Virus record (IMG/VR): IMGVR_UViG_3300032668_000011
Location: 55,645-75,644 of that record
DNA length: 20,000 bases
Origin: an uncultured virus (IMG/VR IMGVR_UViG_3300032668_000011)
Lineage: Duplodnaviria > Heunggongvirae > Uroviricota > Caudoviricetes
Direction: 5' to 3' (one strand)
The notes below the pieces were generated by a model. That model did no database searches. It was not told the DNA's origin and saw only the letters and a list, made by a program, of their open reading frames with translations. Position numbers and translations under genes: made by a program. Shown here in pieces: positions 6,746 to 20,000 of the stretch (positions are counted from its first letter, which is position 1; every line of letters starts with the position of its first letter).

Positions 6746-7177
6746 TCACTTCTCAGGCGTTGACTTCGATGATTGTTGTGCGACGGGCGTAGCCACAGGC
6801 TGACGCTCGTGACGACTTTCCTTGATGAATTGGACCCTATTGTTGGGAGGAACAGGCGCGGAACATGCGTCTCCGACCGGCGCCTTACGTTGAGGTGGAG
6901 GTGGAGTGTCATCAGCATCGACGAAAATGCGCCTGCTAATCTGCGGTGCGAACATCGATGTTGCTTGCGTCAGTTCGCGCGTAAGCTTCTGAGCGTTTCC
7001 TTCACCTGCGTCAGCCACGATCTCTGACTGCTTAGCATACTGACTGTGCAATTGAGACTGTTGCACTGCAGGCGCAAGCGGCCTGCGAGCTGTCATGATC
7101 AGGCGGATTGATGTCGCAGTTGACAGCATCGCTAAGCTGCCAGCTGCGACATACGTGAAGAAATCCGATGGGATCAT
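6746..7177 (-). CDS. hypothetical protein with N-terminal hydrophobic/membrane segment
   Basis: 143 aa; FFTYVAAGSLAMLSTATSIRLIM followed by a Pro/Gln-rich tail; ATGA overlap with the sigma stop. Confidence 0.7.
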   Translation of the reverse strand: MIPSDFFTYVAAGSLAMLSTATSIRLIMTARRPLAPAVQQSQLHSQYAKQSEIVADAGEGNAQKLTRELTQATSMFAPQISRRIFVDADDTPPPPQRKAPVGDACSAPVPPNNRVQFIKESRHERQPVATPVAQQSSKSTPEK

Positions 7178-8010
7178 GTGAGCCCGGTGCCAGCCTCGAG
7201 GACCATGCGGGCTTCCTCCTCAGTGATCGGATACTCCGCTGAGTTCGTTGCGTCCTCTACGAGACCGAAACGAAGACGAAGGATCGCCGCTTCTTTCTGT
7301 GAGAGACCATTGAGCACCTGCTGCGTGATCTCCAGCAGTTGCTTCTCTGCAACGTTCGTGAAGGGATCGCAACCGGGACGTTCGTCCTCAACCTTATCCT
7401 CAATGGTGTCGCCGTCACCGCTCGAGGAGAGCGGTTGCTGCAGAGAGATCGTCCCGCGGCCAGAGTGCATCGTAGCCTTGACGACTGTCTCGCTTGCACC
7501 GACGATGCCCTGGAGTTCTTCCTGCGTGGGCTCACAACCCATTGTCTCGCGAAATTCCTCCGCTGCCTGCAACATCTTACGTTGCACTGCTGCTGCATGT
7601 GCCGGGAGACGAATGATGCGCTTTCGCTTCAGGATCGCCTGACCGATCGCCTGCTTGATCCACCACGTTGCGTATGTGGAGAACCTGAAGCCTTTCTCCC
7701 ACTTGAAGCGGTCGATCGACTTCATGAGGCCGATGTTGCCCTCCTGGATGATGTCCTCGATTGGGATGTTGTGTCCCTTGTACTGCTTCGCGATCGAGAC
7801 GACGAGACGGAGGTTGCACTCCGTCAACTTCGCTCGGATCTTCTTGGCTTCCGAAGTACGATCGATGACTTCGTTCTCCGCGTCACGAGTGCAGCCCGCA
7901 TCGTACTTCTTGAAGAGCTCTACCACCTCAGGGTGCTTGAGCTGTGGGAAGTTGTGAAGTGCGTCAAGGTACGACCTGACGATGTTGTGTTCTGTGTTAT
8001 CTGCGCGCAT
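7174..8010 (-). CDS. RNA polymerase sigma-70 factor, RpoD/SigA-like, lacking the region 4.2 HTH
   Basis: Region 1.2 VRSYLDAL; region 2 NLRLVVSIAKQY, DIIQEGNIGLMKSIDRF, FSTYATWWIKQAI, RIIRLP; region 3 ISLQQP; region 4.1 LSQKEAAILRLRFGL. Start at 8010 (TGATG overlap) or 8019. Confidence 0.92.
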   Translation of the reverse strand: MRADNTEHNIVRSYLDALHNFPQLKHPEVVELFKKYDAGCTRDAENEVIDRTSEAKKIRAKLTECNLRLVVSIAKQYKGHNIPIEDIIQEGNIGLMKSIDRFKWEKGFRFSTYATWWIKQAIGQAILKRKRIIRLPAHAAAVQRKMLQAAEEFRETMGCEPTQEELQGIVGASETVVKATMHSGRGTISLQQPLSSSGDGDTIEDKVEDERPGCDPFTNVAEKQLLEITQQVLNGLSQKEAAILRLRFGLVEDATNSAEYPITEEEARMVLEAGTGLT

Positions 8011-8399
8011 CAGCTCCACCTTGTGGGTCGTCCACCCGTTGCGGCGTACACGAACGCCATGTTGTCGAAGTCACCGGCGGGCAGGTGCCGCTCGTCGGAC
8101 TCGAATTCTACGCCCGCAGTCCGGACGAACTCTGCATGCGTCTCGCGCCTGACTCGCCTGACCTGCTGTTCACGTCTGACGTAGGCAATCTCCTCCTGCC
8201 ACACTCGAGGATCAGATCGACCGTTCGTTTCTGCACGGTCGAGCCCCTGCTCGAGGGCTCGCAGGTGGTCAATCATGTCCTCATCCGACATCGTCGCTAG
8301 CACATCGATGCTCACGACCTCAGGCGTGTTCACCGCGCTGTACGTGCGCTGCGTTGCGGTTTCAGTCGTCTCGTTGCGCTGCTTCCTATTCTTCTGCAC
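8010..8399 (-). CDS. hypothetical protein, translationally coupled to the sigma gene
   Basis: 129 aa, GTG start with GAGGA SD. Confidence 0.75.
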   Translation of the reverse strand: MQKNRKQRNETTETATQRTYSAVNTPEVVSIDVLATMSDEDMIDHLRALEQGLDRAETNGRSDPRVWQEEIAYVRREQQVRRVRRETHAEFVRTAGVEFESDERHLPAGDFDNMAFVYAATGGRPTRWS

Positions 8400-10284: not shown

Positions 10285-10360
10285 GTAAGATGCTGCTGAC
10301 TCCCGGGAGGCGAACGCCTCCACTCGAGAGGCGTGAATTCGTCTCTCTAGGACTCAGCGG

Positions 10361-10433
10361 TGGAATTGAAGGGATTCGAACCCTCTACCTCCTGCATGCC
10401 GTGCAGGCGCTCTCCCAATTGAGCTACAATCCC
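10361..10433 (-). tRNA. trnA: tRNA-Ala(GGC)
   Basis: GGGATTG/CAATTCC with G3-U70 and A73; CCTGC-AC GGC AT-GCAGG. Confidence 0.92.
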
Positions 10434-10434
10434 G

Positions 10435-10511
10435 TGGACCCGGAGGGAGTCGAACCCTCAATCACGTAGGTTCCATTGTCGGCTTTCCTATGTGACTCGC
10501 CTTTCAGGCCC
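10435..10511 (-). ncRNA. 77-nt Ala-type tRNA-like RNA resembling the tmRNA tRNA-like domain (no D stem, no mRNA domain)
   Basis: GGGCCTG/CGGGTCC (G3-U70, A73), unpaired AAAGGCGAG, long helix TCACATAGG/CCTACGTGA, T arm GAGGG-TTCGACT-CCCTC. Confidence 0.65.
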
Positions 10512-10555
10512 TTTTACGCCGAGTGAAACACAACCGCACTGTGCCATGGCGTTAG

Positions 10556-10628
10556 TGGAACTCACGGGATTCGAACCCGTCGCCTCCTGCGTGCAAAGCA
10601 GGCGCTCTCCCAAATGAGCTAGAGTCCC
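10556..10628 (-). tRNA. trnA: tRNA-Ala(TGC)
   Basis: GGGACTC/GAGTTCC with G3-U70; CCTGC-TT TGC AC-GCAGG. Confidence 0.93.
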
Positions 10629-10663: not shown

Positions 10664-11419
10664 TTACTGTAAGCCTGCCTGTTGCGTGATCGTCTGAATC
10701 GCCGCTGTTCCCCTGACATTGGACATCCCAAGGTCGATGAGTACAAGCGTGCCGTCGTCTCTTTTCATCATGTTGCCGGCATGGTAGTCGTGAAAGTCAA
10801 TGCCAAGTTCCGTGAGAGTCTCGAACAATCCCTTCACACCGTACTTCTTGACTAGGAGGCTCCACTGTTCGTTTGCGTGTGCGATGAACTTCTGCGCTTC
10901 AGGTGAGGTGAAAGACTTGAACTTCTTCTTTGCAGTTTCCTTGATGTGTTCCTTCGTGAGTTCCTTGACCTTGTCCCAGGAGCCTCCTGCACGTTTGACC
11001 CAAAGCGGAAATGCTGTCGTCACAAGTGCGTCATTAAACGATTTGCCTTCTTCTGCGCTGATAGTTTGCAACTTTTCTTGCAGGATCGCGAATGTACCCG
11101 TGTCGCCTAGGCTCCATACGCCGTAAAAATTCACAACTCCGCTGACGTTCTTTCCCACGAGGATTGATGCTGCGTGCGCTTCTTTGCCGTCGTTCGTGAC
11201 CTTGAGAACCTTGTCGCCTACCTCGAAAACTGTACCCCGCGTGCCCGTACCGATCGGTTGTAATGAATCAACGTCCTTGATTCCTAGTTTCGCCGCACCT
11301 TTCGGAAAGCGTTTGAGAAGTTCTTTCGCCTCATCGGGCGTCACGGGCTTGTTTTCCTTCGCCTCGAAAATGAGTGCCTCACGCACGAGTCGACGAAGAC
11401 GTCCTAGCTTGATTCTCAT
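10664..11419 (-). CDS. protein-kinase-like (Ser/Thr or APH-fold) enzyme inside the tRNA array
   Basis: Gly loop IGTGTRGTVF, VLK lysine, catalytic HDYHAGNMM, LIDLG; N-terminal MRIKLGRLRRLVREAL motif. Confidence 0.85.
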   Translation of the reverse strand: MRIKLGRLRRLVREALIFEAKENKPVTPDEAKELLKRFPKGAAKLGIKDVDSLQPIGTGTRGTVFEVGDKVLKVTNDGKEAHAASILVGKNVSGVVNFYGVWSLGDTGTFAILQEKLQTISAEEGKSFNDALVTTAFPLWVKRAGGSWDKVKELTKEHIKETAKKKFKSFTSPEAQKFIAHANEQWSLLVKKYGVKGLFETLTELGIDFHDYHAGNMMKRDDGTLVLIDLGMSNVRGTAAIQTITQQAGLQ

Positions 11420-11592: not shown

Positions 11593-11970
11593 TTATCGAT
11601 ATTTGCCGGCATATTTCTTCATAGTCTTAGCGCGTTTACTGTTCACCACTTTACCGATATTGCGACCACGATATGTTGATGTTTGCGCATGGCAATTTGG
11701 ACAGATGAGTCTGAGATTTTCTTTTGCTTGGTTCTCAGGATTCCCATCAATGTGATCAATTTCGATTGGGATGGGTCTATTCAACCAAATTGACGTGTTA
11801 CACACTTCACATTTGTGTCCTCTTTCTTCAAGAAGACATCTTTTCTTAATACGGATGTCGTCTGTTCCTTCGAACGTCTTGCGATATTTCTCAGGAAAGT
11901 GTGCTCGTCGATGACCACCCAACGCCCCGGGAGTTTCAAACTCCTGTAAACATGTCTTACACACATACAT
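11593..11970 (-). CDS. HNH homing endonuclease with N-terminal C2H2 zinc finger
   Basis: YVCKTC...ALGGHRRAH; CEVC...EIDHIDGNPENQAKENLRLICPNCH; AT-richer than its flanks and inserted between tRNAs. Confidence 0.88.
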   Translation of the reverse strand: MYVCKTCLQEFETPGALGGHRRAHFPEKYRKTFEGTDDIRIKKRCLLEERGHKCEVCNTSIWLNRPIPIEIDHIDGNPENQAKENLRLICPNCHAQTSTYRGRNIGKVVNSKRAKTMKKYAGKYR

Positions 11971-11993
11971 GCTAGATAGTACCCCACCCGTTG

Positions 11994-12063
11994 AGCCCAA
12001 GGTTGGAGTTGAACCAGCGACCTCCCAGTGGATACCGGGCGCTCTGCACTGAGCTACGTGGGC
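11994..12063 (-). tRNA. non-canonical tRNA (Thr-like body, 6-nt anticodon loop TATCCA)
   Basis: GCCCACG/CTTGGGC with U73, D loop AGTGCA lacking GG, CCCGG-TATCCA-CTGGG, T-loop TTCAACT. Confidence 0.65.
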
Positions 12064-12065
12064 AG

Positions 12066-12139
12066 TTGCAAAGGAAGGGCTTTAACCTCCGACCTCCGGG
12101 CCATTACGCCCGGCGCTCTCTCTCCTGAGCTACTTCGCA
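12066..12139 (-). tRNA. non-canonical tRNA (8-nt anticodon loop CGTAATGG)
   Basis: TGCGAAG/CTTTGCA, D loop AGGAGAGA, CCGGG-CGTAATGG-CCCGG, T-loop TTAAAGC. Confidence 0.65.
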
Positions 12140-17607: not shown

Positions 17608-18912
17608 TCACTTCCTTGGATCTGCGTTGAACACGTCGATGATGCGCATCGCAACCTTGTCCCACGTGTTCTCTGAAATGTACTCGAGTTGACGGTCAAC
17701 CTGAACTTTGCGCGCACATGGATTCGAGAACATGCAGTCAAGATTGTTCGCAATTTCCTCAGGCGTGTCAGCCTTGATCGTTGGAACATCAGAGAAGTGA
17801 TTTGCGCTCGAAGTGATGACTGGTAACGCCTTCGACATCGCGTAACGTGCAGCACCGGACGCACCGAACACCTCGTGTTCATGGTGAGTGACGTATGGAA
17901 ACACGATCGCCTGGTTCGTTCTCATGTATGAGTCAAGCGCAGTGTCAGACTGATAGCCGCGAATGATCGCCACGTTGTTTGACATGTCGAGCTCGTTGAC
18001 CAACCTCATAAGCTCATCGTAGTACACCTGGTGATCGACAGCATTGAACGGTGACTCGCTGAATAGGGCCGTGAAGAAGACATCACTGTATTTTTCGTGC
18101 AGCACATGTGCGGCTCGAATCGCCGTCTCCCAACCCTTGTACCTGAAACCGAACCCTGCTTGCATGAACGTGTGCTCGCTCTTGTAGAAGTTCCACAGGC
18201 GCTCAGTTTCAGTGACTGGCATGCAACCGTGCGGGATGACGTGGATCGGCGCTGTGATCCCTTTTTCATCCTGCAACACCTTCCTCGCGCCGTCGAGGTG
18301 AACTATGATCTCAGGCATCGCTGCCTCGACAATCGTCTTGTCACGATGATGAAAGACTGAATGCATAGTCACGATGACACGATAGTCGCTGAGCTGGCTC
18401 ATGAACGACAACCATGCCGCAGCATTGCTCCACAGGCCAAATTCGTGTTGGATCCACACGATATCGGGGTCGTACGACTTGATCTCGCCGATCAACTCTC
18501 CCAGAGGTTGTCCTCTGTTCCAGCACGACATGACCTTGTCGGGCGGCACGGCAAGGTTTCCTATGACGTTGATCGGGCCGGTCGGACAGTCATTTCTCTC
18601 GATGAACAGTTTGAAATCGCCGACGTGCTTAGCGACCTCGGGCCACAGGTTCTCACTGTACGTCGCGATGCCGCATCGCATCTTCCAATTGCCGACGAAC
18701 GCTACTTTGAGTGTGGATGCTTTGCCGCCGTACCGTCGCTTCAATCTCCCGTTGACAACGCGAAAATCTGTGAAGACGCTTGCCTTGGAAAACTCACAAC
18801 CATCAGTCGGGACGTTCAGAACCTCAATTCCTGGGTCATCGCTGACAATCGGCGAGCTTGATACGACGTAGATGCTTCCGCTACGGATCCCTGCGTACAG
18901 ATTCTTCGACAC
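17608..18912 (-). CDS. glycosyltransferase family 4 (GT-B)
   Basis: CGIATYS, PDIVWIQHEFGL, VTMHSV, VIPHG, GFGFRYKGWE, SGAARYAMSKALPVITS; GTG start at 18912 with AAGGAG SD. Confidence 0.88.
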   Translation of the reverse strand: MSKNLYAGIRSGSIYVVSSSPIVSDDPGIEVLNVPTDGCEFSKASVFTDFRVVNGRLKRRYGGKASTLKVAFVGNWKMRCGIATYSENLWPEVAKHVGDFKLFIERNDCPTGPINVIGNLAVPPDKVMSCWNRGQPLGELIGEIKSYDPDIVWIQHEFGLWSNAAAWLSFMSQLSDYRVIVTMHSVFHHRDKTIVEAAMPEIIVHLDGARKVLQDEKGITAPIHVIPHGCMPVTETERLWNFYKSEHTFMQAGFGFRYKGWETAIRAAHVLHEKYSDVFFTALFSESPFNAVDHQVYYDELMRLVNELDMSNNVAIIRGYQSDTALDSYMRTNQAIVFPYVTHHEHEVFGASGAARYAMSKALPVITSSANHFSDVPTIKADTPEEIANNLDCMFSNPCARKVQVDRQLEYISENTWDKVAMRIIDVFNADPRK

Positions 18913-19903
18913 GGGATCTCCTTTCCTGCGTGACGATCTGCGACATGGCGGAGGCAAGACCGTCGTACACCTCCCGAGAAACACGTGATGGTTCACACTT
19001 TGACTTCATCGCAGACTTGCACGCCGAGAACAACCCATCCTTCGTTAGGCCGTGATATGGAAGATTTTCGCCGCGGCGTGGCCATGCATACTTCAACTTA
19101 TCATGATGATCGATTGAGATGCATGGGACTCCCGCCATCTCCGCAAGGATGATGCCGTGATAACGCTGCGTGATGACGACCTTGTACCTGCTGACGAGAT
19201 TCGTCAGGTGTTGACTGTCAACTGGCTGGTTTGCATGCAGGTCGAAGTATGTTGAGCGATTCTTCATCCTTGCAACGATCTCCGTTGCCACCCAGGCATC
19301 GTTCACCGAGCTGTTCTGGCACATGATCAGGAACGCCGGACACTTCGTTAGACGTTCATCGATGACCTGGTCCATGAACTGGGCACACTCGTCCTTAAAA
19401 CGCTCGAATGCGACGTGTTTCCAGTGAGGCTCGTTCCACGTGGGTAACACCTCTACGTTTGGAATGAATAGAACATCGTGCTTATCATCGTCAACGTCGC
19501 CTTGAGGCAATGCATACACGAGGTCAGGCGCTCCGTATGTTTGCTTGGGAACCCAATCGGGCCACGGTGTGGGGGAACGTGTGATGACTACCCTTGCGAT
19601 CTGCATGAGCGATCGGTGATCAGCATGAACCTCTGTTTCGATCCCGACACCCACGTAGAAGCATGGCCGCATGTTCTTCTGCAACATGTCAAACGCATCC
19701 TTGTCAATGACGGGCTTGTCATACAGCATGCTGCCGCCGCCGAAGATGACGCCATCGCTCTGGATGAGCATCGTGCCGGTTATGTAGTCAACGAACTGCA
19801 GGTCGATGCCGTGAGGATTCAGCATCGACAGCAACGCTTGCGCCATCAATTCATCGCCGAGATTCCCGCGCCCGTACCAGCCGTACACCAAGACCTTTGC
19901 CAT
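18881..19903 (-). CDS. polysaccharide pyruvyl transferase family protein (CsaB/WcaK-like)
   Basis: GWYGRGNLGDELM, IFGGGSML, GVGI, PDLVYAL, VITQRYHGIILA; ATG 19903 lies 6 nt after TACAAT. Confidence 0.88.
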   Translation of the reverse strand: MAKVLVYGWYGRGNLGDELMAQALLSMLNPHGIDLQFVDYITGTMLIQSDGVIFGGGSMLYDKPVIDKDAFDMLQKNMRPCFYVGVGIETEVHADHRSLMQIARVVITRSPTPWPDWVPKQTYGAPDLVYALPQGDVDDDKHDVLFIPNVEVLPTWNEPHWKHVAFERFKDECAQFMDQVIDERLTKCPAFLIMCQNSSVNDAWVATEIVARMKNRSTYFDLHANQPVDSQHLTNLVSRYKVVITQRYHGIILAEMAGVPCISIDHHDKLKYAWPRRGENLPYHGLTKDGLFSACKSAMKSKCEPSRVSREVYDGLASAMSQIVTQERRSRVEESVRRDP

Positions 19904-20000
19904 GCCTTGATTGTACACGATCTACGTCACTCTGGGATGTAGATCTTCCACAAGATAGTTCGCGCTGTGCTCACCGTCCAGATGATCTTGAGCCGTAGCT

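Follow-up and report, generated by a model that had tools for sequence, protein, structure and literature searches.

A candidate gene for a message-less mini-tmRNA in the tRNA array of a lake-water jumbo phage

The window, the whole 20-kb stretch of DNA that was analyzed, is the last part of the 75.6-kb IMG/VR record IMGVR_UViG_3300032668_000011, which has a CheckV completeness of about 20%. In the 75.6-kb record ARAGORN called 51 tRNAs, every one on the minus strand, indicating a large phage with a near-complete tRNA set as the source. The stretch is present in DNA runs mostly from lake-water metagenomes, with no RNA run among the public runs listed for it, and the source is a lake-water jumbo phage. 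Between two Ala tRNA genes of the array lies a 77-nt element, the putative gene for a small RNA resembling the tRNA-like domain (TLD) of tmRNA. The features of the locus are as follows.

10359..10433, minus strand: flanking tRNA-Ala(GGC), 1 nt downstream of the element in the RNA sense (ARAGORN; Rfam tRNA, 60.3 bits)
10434..10434, minus strand: single spacer base, C in the RNA sense, separating the element from tRNA-Ala(GGC)
10435..10511, minus strand: putative mini-tmRNA gene (TLD-only, tmRNA-like), whole, 77 nt (sequence, fold, covariance-model homologues at 82-101 bits in other phages, covariation)
10505..10511, minus strand: acceptor stem, 5' strand, nt 1-7 (GGGCCUG), paired with nt 70-76
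10498..10504, minus strand: D-loop analogue, unpaired, nt 8-14 (AAAGGCG), including a conserved GG; no D stem forms in the fold
10487..10497, minus strand: long helix, 5' strand, nt 15-25; 10 bp with one A.C mismatch
10471..10486, minus strand: distal module, nt 26-41 (AAAGCCGACAAUGGAA); internal loop, CCG/UGG mini-stem, ACAA tetraloop
10460..10470, minus strand: long helix, 3' strand, nt 42-52 (fold and covariation)
10443..10459, minus strand: T arm, nt 53-69 (GAGGG-UUCGACU-CCCUC); 5 pairs, paired in 100% of cells
10435..10442, minus strand: acceptor stem, 3' strand, nt 70-76 (CGGGUCC), and discriminator A, nt 77 (fold and covariation; A in all 46 family members)
10555..10628, minus strand: flanking tRNA-Ala(UGC), upstream in the RNA sense (ARAGORN; Rfam tRNA, 64.6 bits)

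The original prediction, made by reading the letters of the window, had described a 77-nt unit between the two Ala tRNAs and 1 nt from tRNA-Ala(GGC), which is borne out on the minus strand. The G3-U70/A73 acceptor and the unpaired D region that it proposed are both present in the sequence and the fold, and the T arm it spelled out lies at nt 53-69. The helix of 9-11 bp with a 16-nt loop, said to replace the anticodon arm, is found as 10 bp with one mismatch. In tRNA numbering the first acceptor pairs are G1:C72, G2:C71, and G3:U70, and nt 77 is the discriminator A73. As nt 8-14 are unpaired, there is no D stem. The long helix is built of 6 + 4 bp around the A.C mismatch and carries the 16-nt loop (nt 26-41), in which a 3-bp mini-stem (CCG/UGG) with a tetraloop on top probably forms. 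The T arm abuts the long helix directly, the variable region being absent. The spacer C at 10434 probably becomes C74 of the mature CCA terminus. When the central 45 nt were shuffled 2000 times with dinucleotide content preserved, no shuffle reached a helix of 10 bp with one mismatch or none. The MFE of those 45 nt has a z-score of -2.8, with 18 of the 2000 shuffles folding as well, and the whole element has an MFE of -30.1 kcal/mol (z -2.38), equaled by 6 of 200 shuffles.

Several searches covered the array itself. Promoter and terminator scans gave counts no higher than in shuffles. A near-identity search with the 3.9-kb tRNA array against GenBank phages returned generic tRNA matches only, and an exact 20-mer scan of IMG/VR found the same phage again and nothing else. 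A copy identical to the window element is present in record G001, and contigs from four DNA runs showed no variants inside the 77 nt.

Beside the Ala tRNA cluster is a gene for a 251-aa protein (10664-11419, minus strand) with a weak match to the ABC1 atypical kinases (E 6e-4; 19.4 bits against a cut-off of 22.9). This kinase-like protein adjoins the Ala tRNA cluster in relatives as well, at 51-62% identity, and a metagenome scan with it for intermediates yielded 100% copies and, beyond those, no relative above 57% identity. Within the array, an open reading frame at 11593-12000 (minus strand) matches a C2H2 zinc finger and, weakly and below threshold, HNH endonucleases; an annotated HNH endonuclease gene also lies in the tRNA array of Streptomyces phage Wofford. 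For the two adjacent tRNA genes at 11993-12063 and 12065-12139 (minus strand; Rfam tRNA scores of 40.1 and 47 bits), ARAGORN reports two-base "anticodons" (tc and aa), which imply undersized anticodon loops. Odd tRNAs with four-base anticodons occur in relatives. ARAGORN also calls candidate suppressor tRNAs with the anticodon UUA, reading UAA, at G000:C1:34591-34682, which belongs to the source phage outside the window, and at L005:9545-9620 and L016:1578-1652; these may point to stop-codon recoding. The phage further encodes a sigma-70 family protein, an ATP-dependent DNA ligase, a glycosyltransferase, and a polysaccharide pyruvyl transferase (7174-8019, 881-2239, 17608-19918, all on the minus strand).

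At the element ARAGORN called neither a tRNA nor a tmRNA. The Rfam tRNA model (RF00005) gave 12.7 bits, below its cut-off of 29, by matching the T arm only (model positions 44-63). A D arm, an anticodon arm, and an anticodon, as a tRNA would have, are all absent. The Rfam tmRNA model (RF00023; gathering cut-off 47 bits) likewise matched only the T arm of the window copy, at 11.3 bits. It gave the identical copy in G001 14.9 bits, with the neighboring tRNA-Ala scoring higher (22.8 bits), and other copies of the same branch 33-41 bits. In all, the window copy and seven other scored copies of its branch miss the tmRNA cut-off. With 77 nt, the element has neither the pseudoknots nor the mRNA-like domain (resume codon, tag frame, and stop) of a full-length tmRNA. 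Read from the loop GCC onward, the window copy meets no stop codon in frame, and a UGA follows after 5 codons in one homologue only (L033). The mitochondrial tmRNA model (RF02544; cut-off 65 bits) had no match at E <= 1 in the whole phage record. Of the three Rfam models to which the original prediction looked, those for tmRNA and tRNA thus see the T arm alone in the window copy and that for mt-tmRNA sees nothing, while the tmRNA model does recognize members of the wider family described below. No known Rfam motif matched the distal module.

A partial match of 30 bits to the YrlA / Y RNA-like model (RF02553; cut-off 69) at 10407-10465 (minus strand) was rejected. It joins the T arm of the element to the D arm of the next tRNA and is therefore a composite of two genes and no Y RNA.

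A covariance model built from the single window sequence (R1) found full-length 77-nt matches in three distant phages (L007, L016, and L011) at 82.5-86.3 bits, with ordinary tRNAs reaching at most 31.2 bits. The kinase-like neighbor protein in these three phages is only 51-58% identical to that of the window. Eighteen loci emerged from a pattern scan of IMG/VR that combined the loop with the beginning of the T arm; 17 were scored, one (L022) being omitted as it is in the same record as L003. The covariance model confirmed 16 of the 17, and the homologues are 77-78 nt long. The remaining locus (L038) failed the model and is a chance match.

Among 14 distinct sequences, 95.1% of cells pair according to the proposed structure, against 77.5% in shuffles, and both partners change in 13 of 22 pairs. 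The covariation score was reached by none of 500 shuffles, and controls in which the structure was slid pair in at most 52.5% of cells. The original prediction had turned to covariation among phage homologs, and it is strong: nine of the ten pairs of the long helix change on both sides, unlike what a recently decayed tRNA-Ala lacking covariation in that helix would give. In the acceptor stem G1:C72, G2:C71, and G3:U70 are invariant in all 14 sequences and pairs 4:69, 5:68, and 6:67 covary. All 14 also keep a GG followed by a pyrimidine in the D-loop analogue (alignment A4). MAFFT and RNAalifold, with an alignment not fitted to the proposed structure, returned the same fold, in which 13 of 23 pairs show compensatory changes. 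Of the 16 positions of the distal module, 15 are fixed in 13 of these sequences, and the sequence of L011 has one further change. The 77-nt element is confirmed as a real, conserved RNA gene.

We considered whether the element is instead a tRNA-Ala(CGC) that has decayed or been remodeled into a pseudogene, or just a processing spacer between tRNAs. In three relatives found through the kinase-like neighbor (L005, L006, and L007; 54-61% identity) the corresponding slot is occupied by tRNA-Ala(CGC), ARAGORN finds no tRNA-Ala(CGC) in the 75.6-kb fragment, and the acceptor stem is that of the tRNA-Ala(CGC) of L008 save one position. However, an intact tRNA-Ala(CGC) stands beside the element in L007, L016, and L011, and in Streptomyces phages the element is found outside Ala clusters. 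Strong covariation and a nearly invariant module across phages whose neighbor proteins share 51-58% identity also speak against decay, as does a helix that shuffling never reproduced. Such an origin is extremely improbable.

To look beyond the close branch we used a looser scan allowing any tetraloop, which gave 82 loci in IMG/VR; 63 were scored, the other 19 being in records already covered. A family member is present at 48 of the 63. With the earlier sequences and the element of Mycobacterium phage DS6A, the family totals 46 distinct sequences of 77-82 nt. Five loci (L066, L097, L118, L130, and L131; four distinct sequences) were set aside as ordinary tRNAs, since they are without GGG...CCA ends or carry a G discriminator. 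The members come from proviruses, 35-112-kb phages, Streptomyces phages, and jumbo phages, amounting to at least 46 distinct sequences from a pattern-limited scan.

All 46 members have G3:U70 and A73. As the neighboring acceptor pairs covary freely, alanine identity is under selection. A C directly follows A73 in 44 of the 46, and the full CCA is encoded in only four. The module, G-AAAR-CCG-NNNN-YGG, is also found in all 46, but the set was selected on that motif, which makes its presence throughout partly circular. G:C forms the third pair of the mini-stem in 37 members and G:U in nine. The tetraloop is CACG in 27, ACAA in eight, CAUG in seven, CUUG in three, and AAAA in one. A 5' motif of the GG..UCGAC type is present in 27 of the 46 and GGAC before the T stem in 23.

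These last two motifs connect the family to tmRNA. Four full-length phage tmRNAs carry the same GG(N)UUCGAC-type and GGAC motifs. Phage RNAs of about 80 nt with the tmRNA motifs GGUUUCGAC and GGAC share the architecture and the distal module of the window copy and exceed the tmRNA cut-off. In 16 of 20 further records an element of about 81 nt lies above that cut-off (49.6-73.9 bits), so a "tmRNA" call in a phage can mean a TLD-only gene, as these RNAs have no message domain. Examples from the smaller phage and provirus records are G014:C1:14964-15046 and G018:C1:29856-29936, with 14 more places. The window copy itself lacks the UUCGAC and GGAC motifs and has AAAGGCG-AGUCAC and GAUU instead, making SmpB binding uncertain for its branch. 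Its D-loop analogue has a mean identity of 0.22 to the four phage tmRNAs versus 0.27 to four tRNA-Ala genes, and some other family members are 80-87% identical over this region to the best of the four phage tmRNAs. With its score below the cut-off and a D-loop analogue no nearer to tmRNA than to tRNA-Ala, the window copy is linked to tmRNA transitively.

The family is tmRNA-derived, given the shared architecture and module, the tmRNA motifs, and the members above the cut-off. The window copy shares the layout of the TLD-only members throughout: a 7-bp acceptor, connector, helix, module, and T arm with a UUCGANU loop. The tmRNA tRNA-like-domain layout put forward in the original prediction is hence supported by transitive homology, through the members above the cut-off and DS6A. 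Judged by sequence and architecture, the window copy is the gene for a message-less mini-tmRNA, little more than a TLD and a short capped helix, and represents a divergent branch of a tmRNA-derived phage family that includes the "TLD only" tmRNA of DS6A.

The latter element is listed as "Mycobacterium phage DS6A (TLD only)" in PMC4131195 (Hudson, Lau & Williams 2014), where its sequence is described as little more than the TLD. In the DS6A genome it lies at L041:1479-1558, unannotated in its record, between gp33 and gp34, and has the same module. It is the sole match of covariance model R2 in that genome; its 37.7 bits alone do not discriminate, as ordinary tRNAs reach 38.4 bits on R2. According to PMC4131195, citing Mao et al. 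2009, a molecule similar to that of DS6A strongly inhibits tmRNA whether chargeable or not, perhaps by titrating SmpB. PMC11915505 repeats this inhibition by such a molecule, seen in E. coli, and counts nine "standard, no CDS" tmRNA sequences. In the portions of these two papers that deal with TLD-only tmRNA, DS6A is the only phage example named. The kind of gene is therefore already published for one phage, and the window copy adds to it an unannotated new member from a divergent branch.

We also considered the loop as a remnant of a tag start. The full tmRNA of a related phage record, G002 (L045), begins its tag with GCC-AAC-GAC-AAU-GGU, to be compared with GCC-GAC-AAU-GGA in the loop; the two share the 9-mer CGACAAUGG. 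The best local match of the loop falls on tag codons 2-5 in two of four phage tmRNAs; of 2000 shuffled loops, 125 score as well against the better of these two and 1095 against the other. With no conserved stop, no synonymous variation, and shuffles scoring as well, this idea was rejected as evidence and serves only as a lead.

To GenBank the element is not foreign: blastn finds it in 44 Streptomyces phage records, with an annotated feature under the match in none. Cultured Streptomyces phages are among the carriers confirmed by the covariance model; in Wofford (NC_048722.1) the element lies unannotated between tRNA-Val and tRNA-Leu. A search for the module-plus-T-arm pattern in 185,579 prokaryote species genomes, one per species, had no match. 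Related records G002 (91% complete) and G004 (86% complete) are without the element.

All five complete element-bearing genomes of the window's branch (G003, Wofford, G007, G008, and G009) also encode a full tmRNA. The source phage is known from fragments 20% and 39% complete, which give no verdict on a full tmRNA of its own. ARAGORN predicts the tags of four full phage tmRNAs, in Wofford, G003, and the element-less G002 and G004, as ANSNVASAYALAA, ANDNGALPLRLAA, ANDNGVAPLALAA, and ANDNATVLRAAA; the tags of the phage full tmRNAs end in ...ALAA or the LAA type. In the canonical branch none of 20 records, 11 of them at least 90% complete, has a full-length tmRNA. An SmpB gene was found in none of five phage records, and the partner would then be host SmpB. 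A Pth homologue was found in none of five records, and genes for RF-1-domain proteins, Pth, and CCA-adding enzymes show no pattern of co-occurrence with the element. Proteins with an RF-1 domain (GGQ peptidyl-tRNA hydrolase) and proteins like the CCA-adding enzyme are encoded in the related jumbo phages G002 and G003 (G002:C1:260577-260894, G003:C1:93119-93439, G003:C1:222153-222524, and G002:C1:60570-61302). The CCA-enzyme match in G002 is split into two open frames.

What such an RNA could do is suggested by the biology of tRNA and tmRNA. AlaRS recognizes G3:U70 in minihelices too, SmpB and EF-Tu are bound by the TLD of tmRNA, and RNase P together with 3' trimming would free the element from the array. 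The mini-tmRNA would be transcribed within the tRNA array, and RNase P would generate its 5' end and that of the tRNA 1 nt downstream, leaving ...A73-C74. A CCA-adding enzyme would complete the 3' end, and the host alanyl-tRNA synthetase would charge the RNA through G3:U70 and A73. The mini-tmRNA would then bind host SmpB and EF-Tu and compete with full-length tmRNA for SmpB and stalled ribosomes. No degradation tag would be added, as there is no resume codon, tag frame, or stop codon, and tagging by trans-translation would be blocked or bypassed during infection, separating rescue from tagging. The nearly invariant distal module would provide a second, sequence-specific contact.

A message-less, alanine-charged mini-tmRNA that competes for host SmpB and ribosomes and so blocks tagging is the best explanation we have for the identity and presumed mechanism of the element, and we put it forward tentatively. 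The outcome could be a block, as the E. coli result cited above suggests, or rescue without a tag. Against an inhibitor stands the full tmRNA encoded alongside in all five complete genomes of the window's branch, which would be odd for a pure inhibitor of trans-translation. In addition, charging is reportedly dispensable for inhibition, so a pure SmpB sponge would not need an invariant alanine identity. Simple titration of SmpB also leaves the conservation of the distal module unexplained, implying a specific partner for the module.

A different possibility is that the RNA rescues ribosomes without adding a tag, as proposed for the message-less mitochondrial tmRNA, with the peptidyl-RNA released by drop-off or by a hydrolase. 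Ribosomes would be recycled and the product left unmarked for proteolysis, to the benefit of the phage. The invariance of G3:U70/A73 in 46 of 46 members and the C74 in 44 of 46 argue for selection on charging and thereby on use at the ribosome, and the length is tightly kept at 77-82 nt. The mitochondrial tmRNA seems to have no tag frame, yet it is conserved and co-occurs with SmpB, according to the part of PMC11915505 on that RNA. The mini form is the only one carried in 20 of 20 smaller phage records (11 at least 90% complete), and an RF-1-domain (GGQ hydrolase) protein is encoded in relatives G002 and G003. However, this gene does not track the element, as G002 has the gene without the element, and a Pth homologue is found in none of five records. 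The sole experimental result cited in the relevant passages of PMC4131195 and PMC11915505 is moreover inhibition. Taken together, we find rescue without tagging somewhat unlikely.

Alternatively, the distal module carries the main function, and the rest of the RNA is an alanine-bearing or tRNA-shaped handle for a specific host or phage partner. Candidate partners would be a defense nuclease, a tRNA-dependent transferase, or a ribosomal site, with the RNA acting for example as a decoy for tRNA-targeting defenses or as a non-ribosomal donor of alanine. Consistent with this, 15 of 16 module positions are fixed in 13 of 14 sequences above a helix that changes at nearly every pair, the pattern is kept in the 46 members, albeit members selected on it, and titration of SmpB alone does not account for it. 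On the other hand, no conserved partner gene lies alongside, the neighbors being Ala tRNAs in the jumbo phages and tRNA-Val and tRNA-Leu in Wofford. Furthermore, no Rfam motif was matched and the universality of the module is partly circular. We regard a module-centered role as unlikely.

In a more far-reaching reading, the mini-tmRNA would be a dedicated RNA acting on the ribosome and not a passive sponge. Its helix of about 11 layers equals the length of the stacked D and anticodon stems of a tRNA, and invariant alanine identity, conserved C74, and fixed length would fit such a role. The charged mini-tmRNA might then enter ribosomes with an empty A site, its nearly invariant distal hairpin docking in the decoding center or mRNA channel where a message would otherwise lie, and the mini and full tmRNAs might together form a two-RNA switch. 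In phages with both forms such a switch would decide between release of stalled products and tagging for destruction. This whole reading is speculative and we consider it quite unlikely.

Several aspects of the family go beyond the published DS6A example. At least 46 distinct sequences are found with a pattern-limited scan of IMG/VR. The conserved distal module is not mentioned in the portions of PMC4131195 and PMC11915505 on TLD-only tmRNA, and no member departs from the alanine identity. Although common among phages, these genes have been left unannotated: ARAGORN and the Rfam cut-off miss the window copy, and 44 GenBank records carry no annotation for the element. This suggests that many phages manipulate trans-translation, a question that is testable in Streptomyces phage-host pairs.

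Among the closest known systems is the DS6A RNA. Like the window copy, it is phage-borne, about 80 nt long, and has a 7-bp acceptor with G3:U70 and A73, a GG-containing connector, and no D stem. Both have a helix of about 10 layers under the same cap, a T arm abutting the helix, and no tag frame. The cap reads GAAAACCG-CACG-CGG in DS6A and GAAAGCCG-ACAA-UGG in the window, so that the tetraloop differs and the third pair of the mini-stem is G:C in the former and G:U in the latter. DS6A keeps GGUCGAC on the 5' side and GCAC before the T stem and scores 43.2 bits, whereas the window copy scores about 11-15 bits. The DS6A genome is also without a full-length tmRNA, unlike the five of five complete genomes of the window's branch. 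Full-length tmRNA (RF00023) shares with the element the alanine acceptor identity, the lack of a D stem, the T arm, and a helix in the P2a position. Those of phages are 282-372 nt long, in contrast to 77 nt for the element, which has no pseudoknots, no mRNA-like domain, and no conserved in-frame stop after the GCC of the loop. The jakobid mitochondrial tmRNA (RF02544) is, similar to the element, a tRNA-like domain without a tag frame; its gene is usually permuted, according to the account in PMC11915505, and it differs in its independent origin and host setting. Canonical tRNA-Ala has in common with the element the G3:U70/A73 acceptor, the T arm, and a place in the Ala tRNA cluster.
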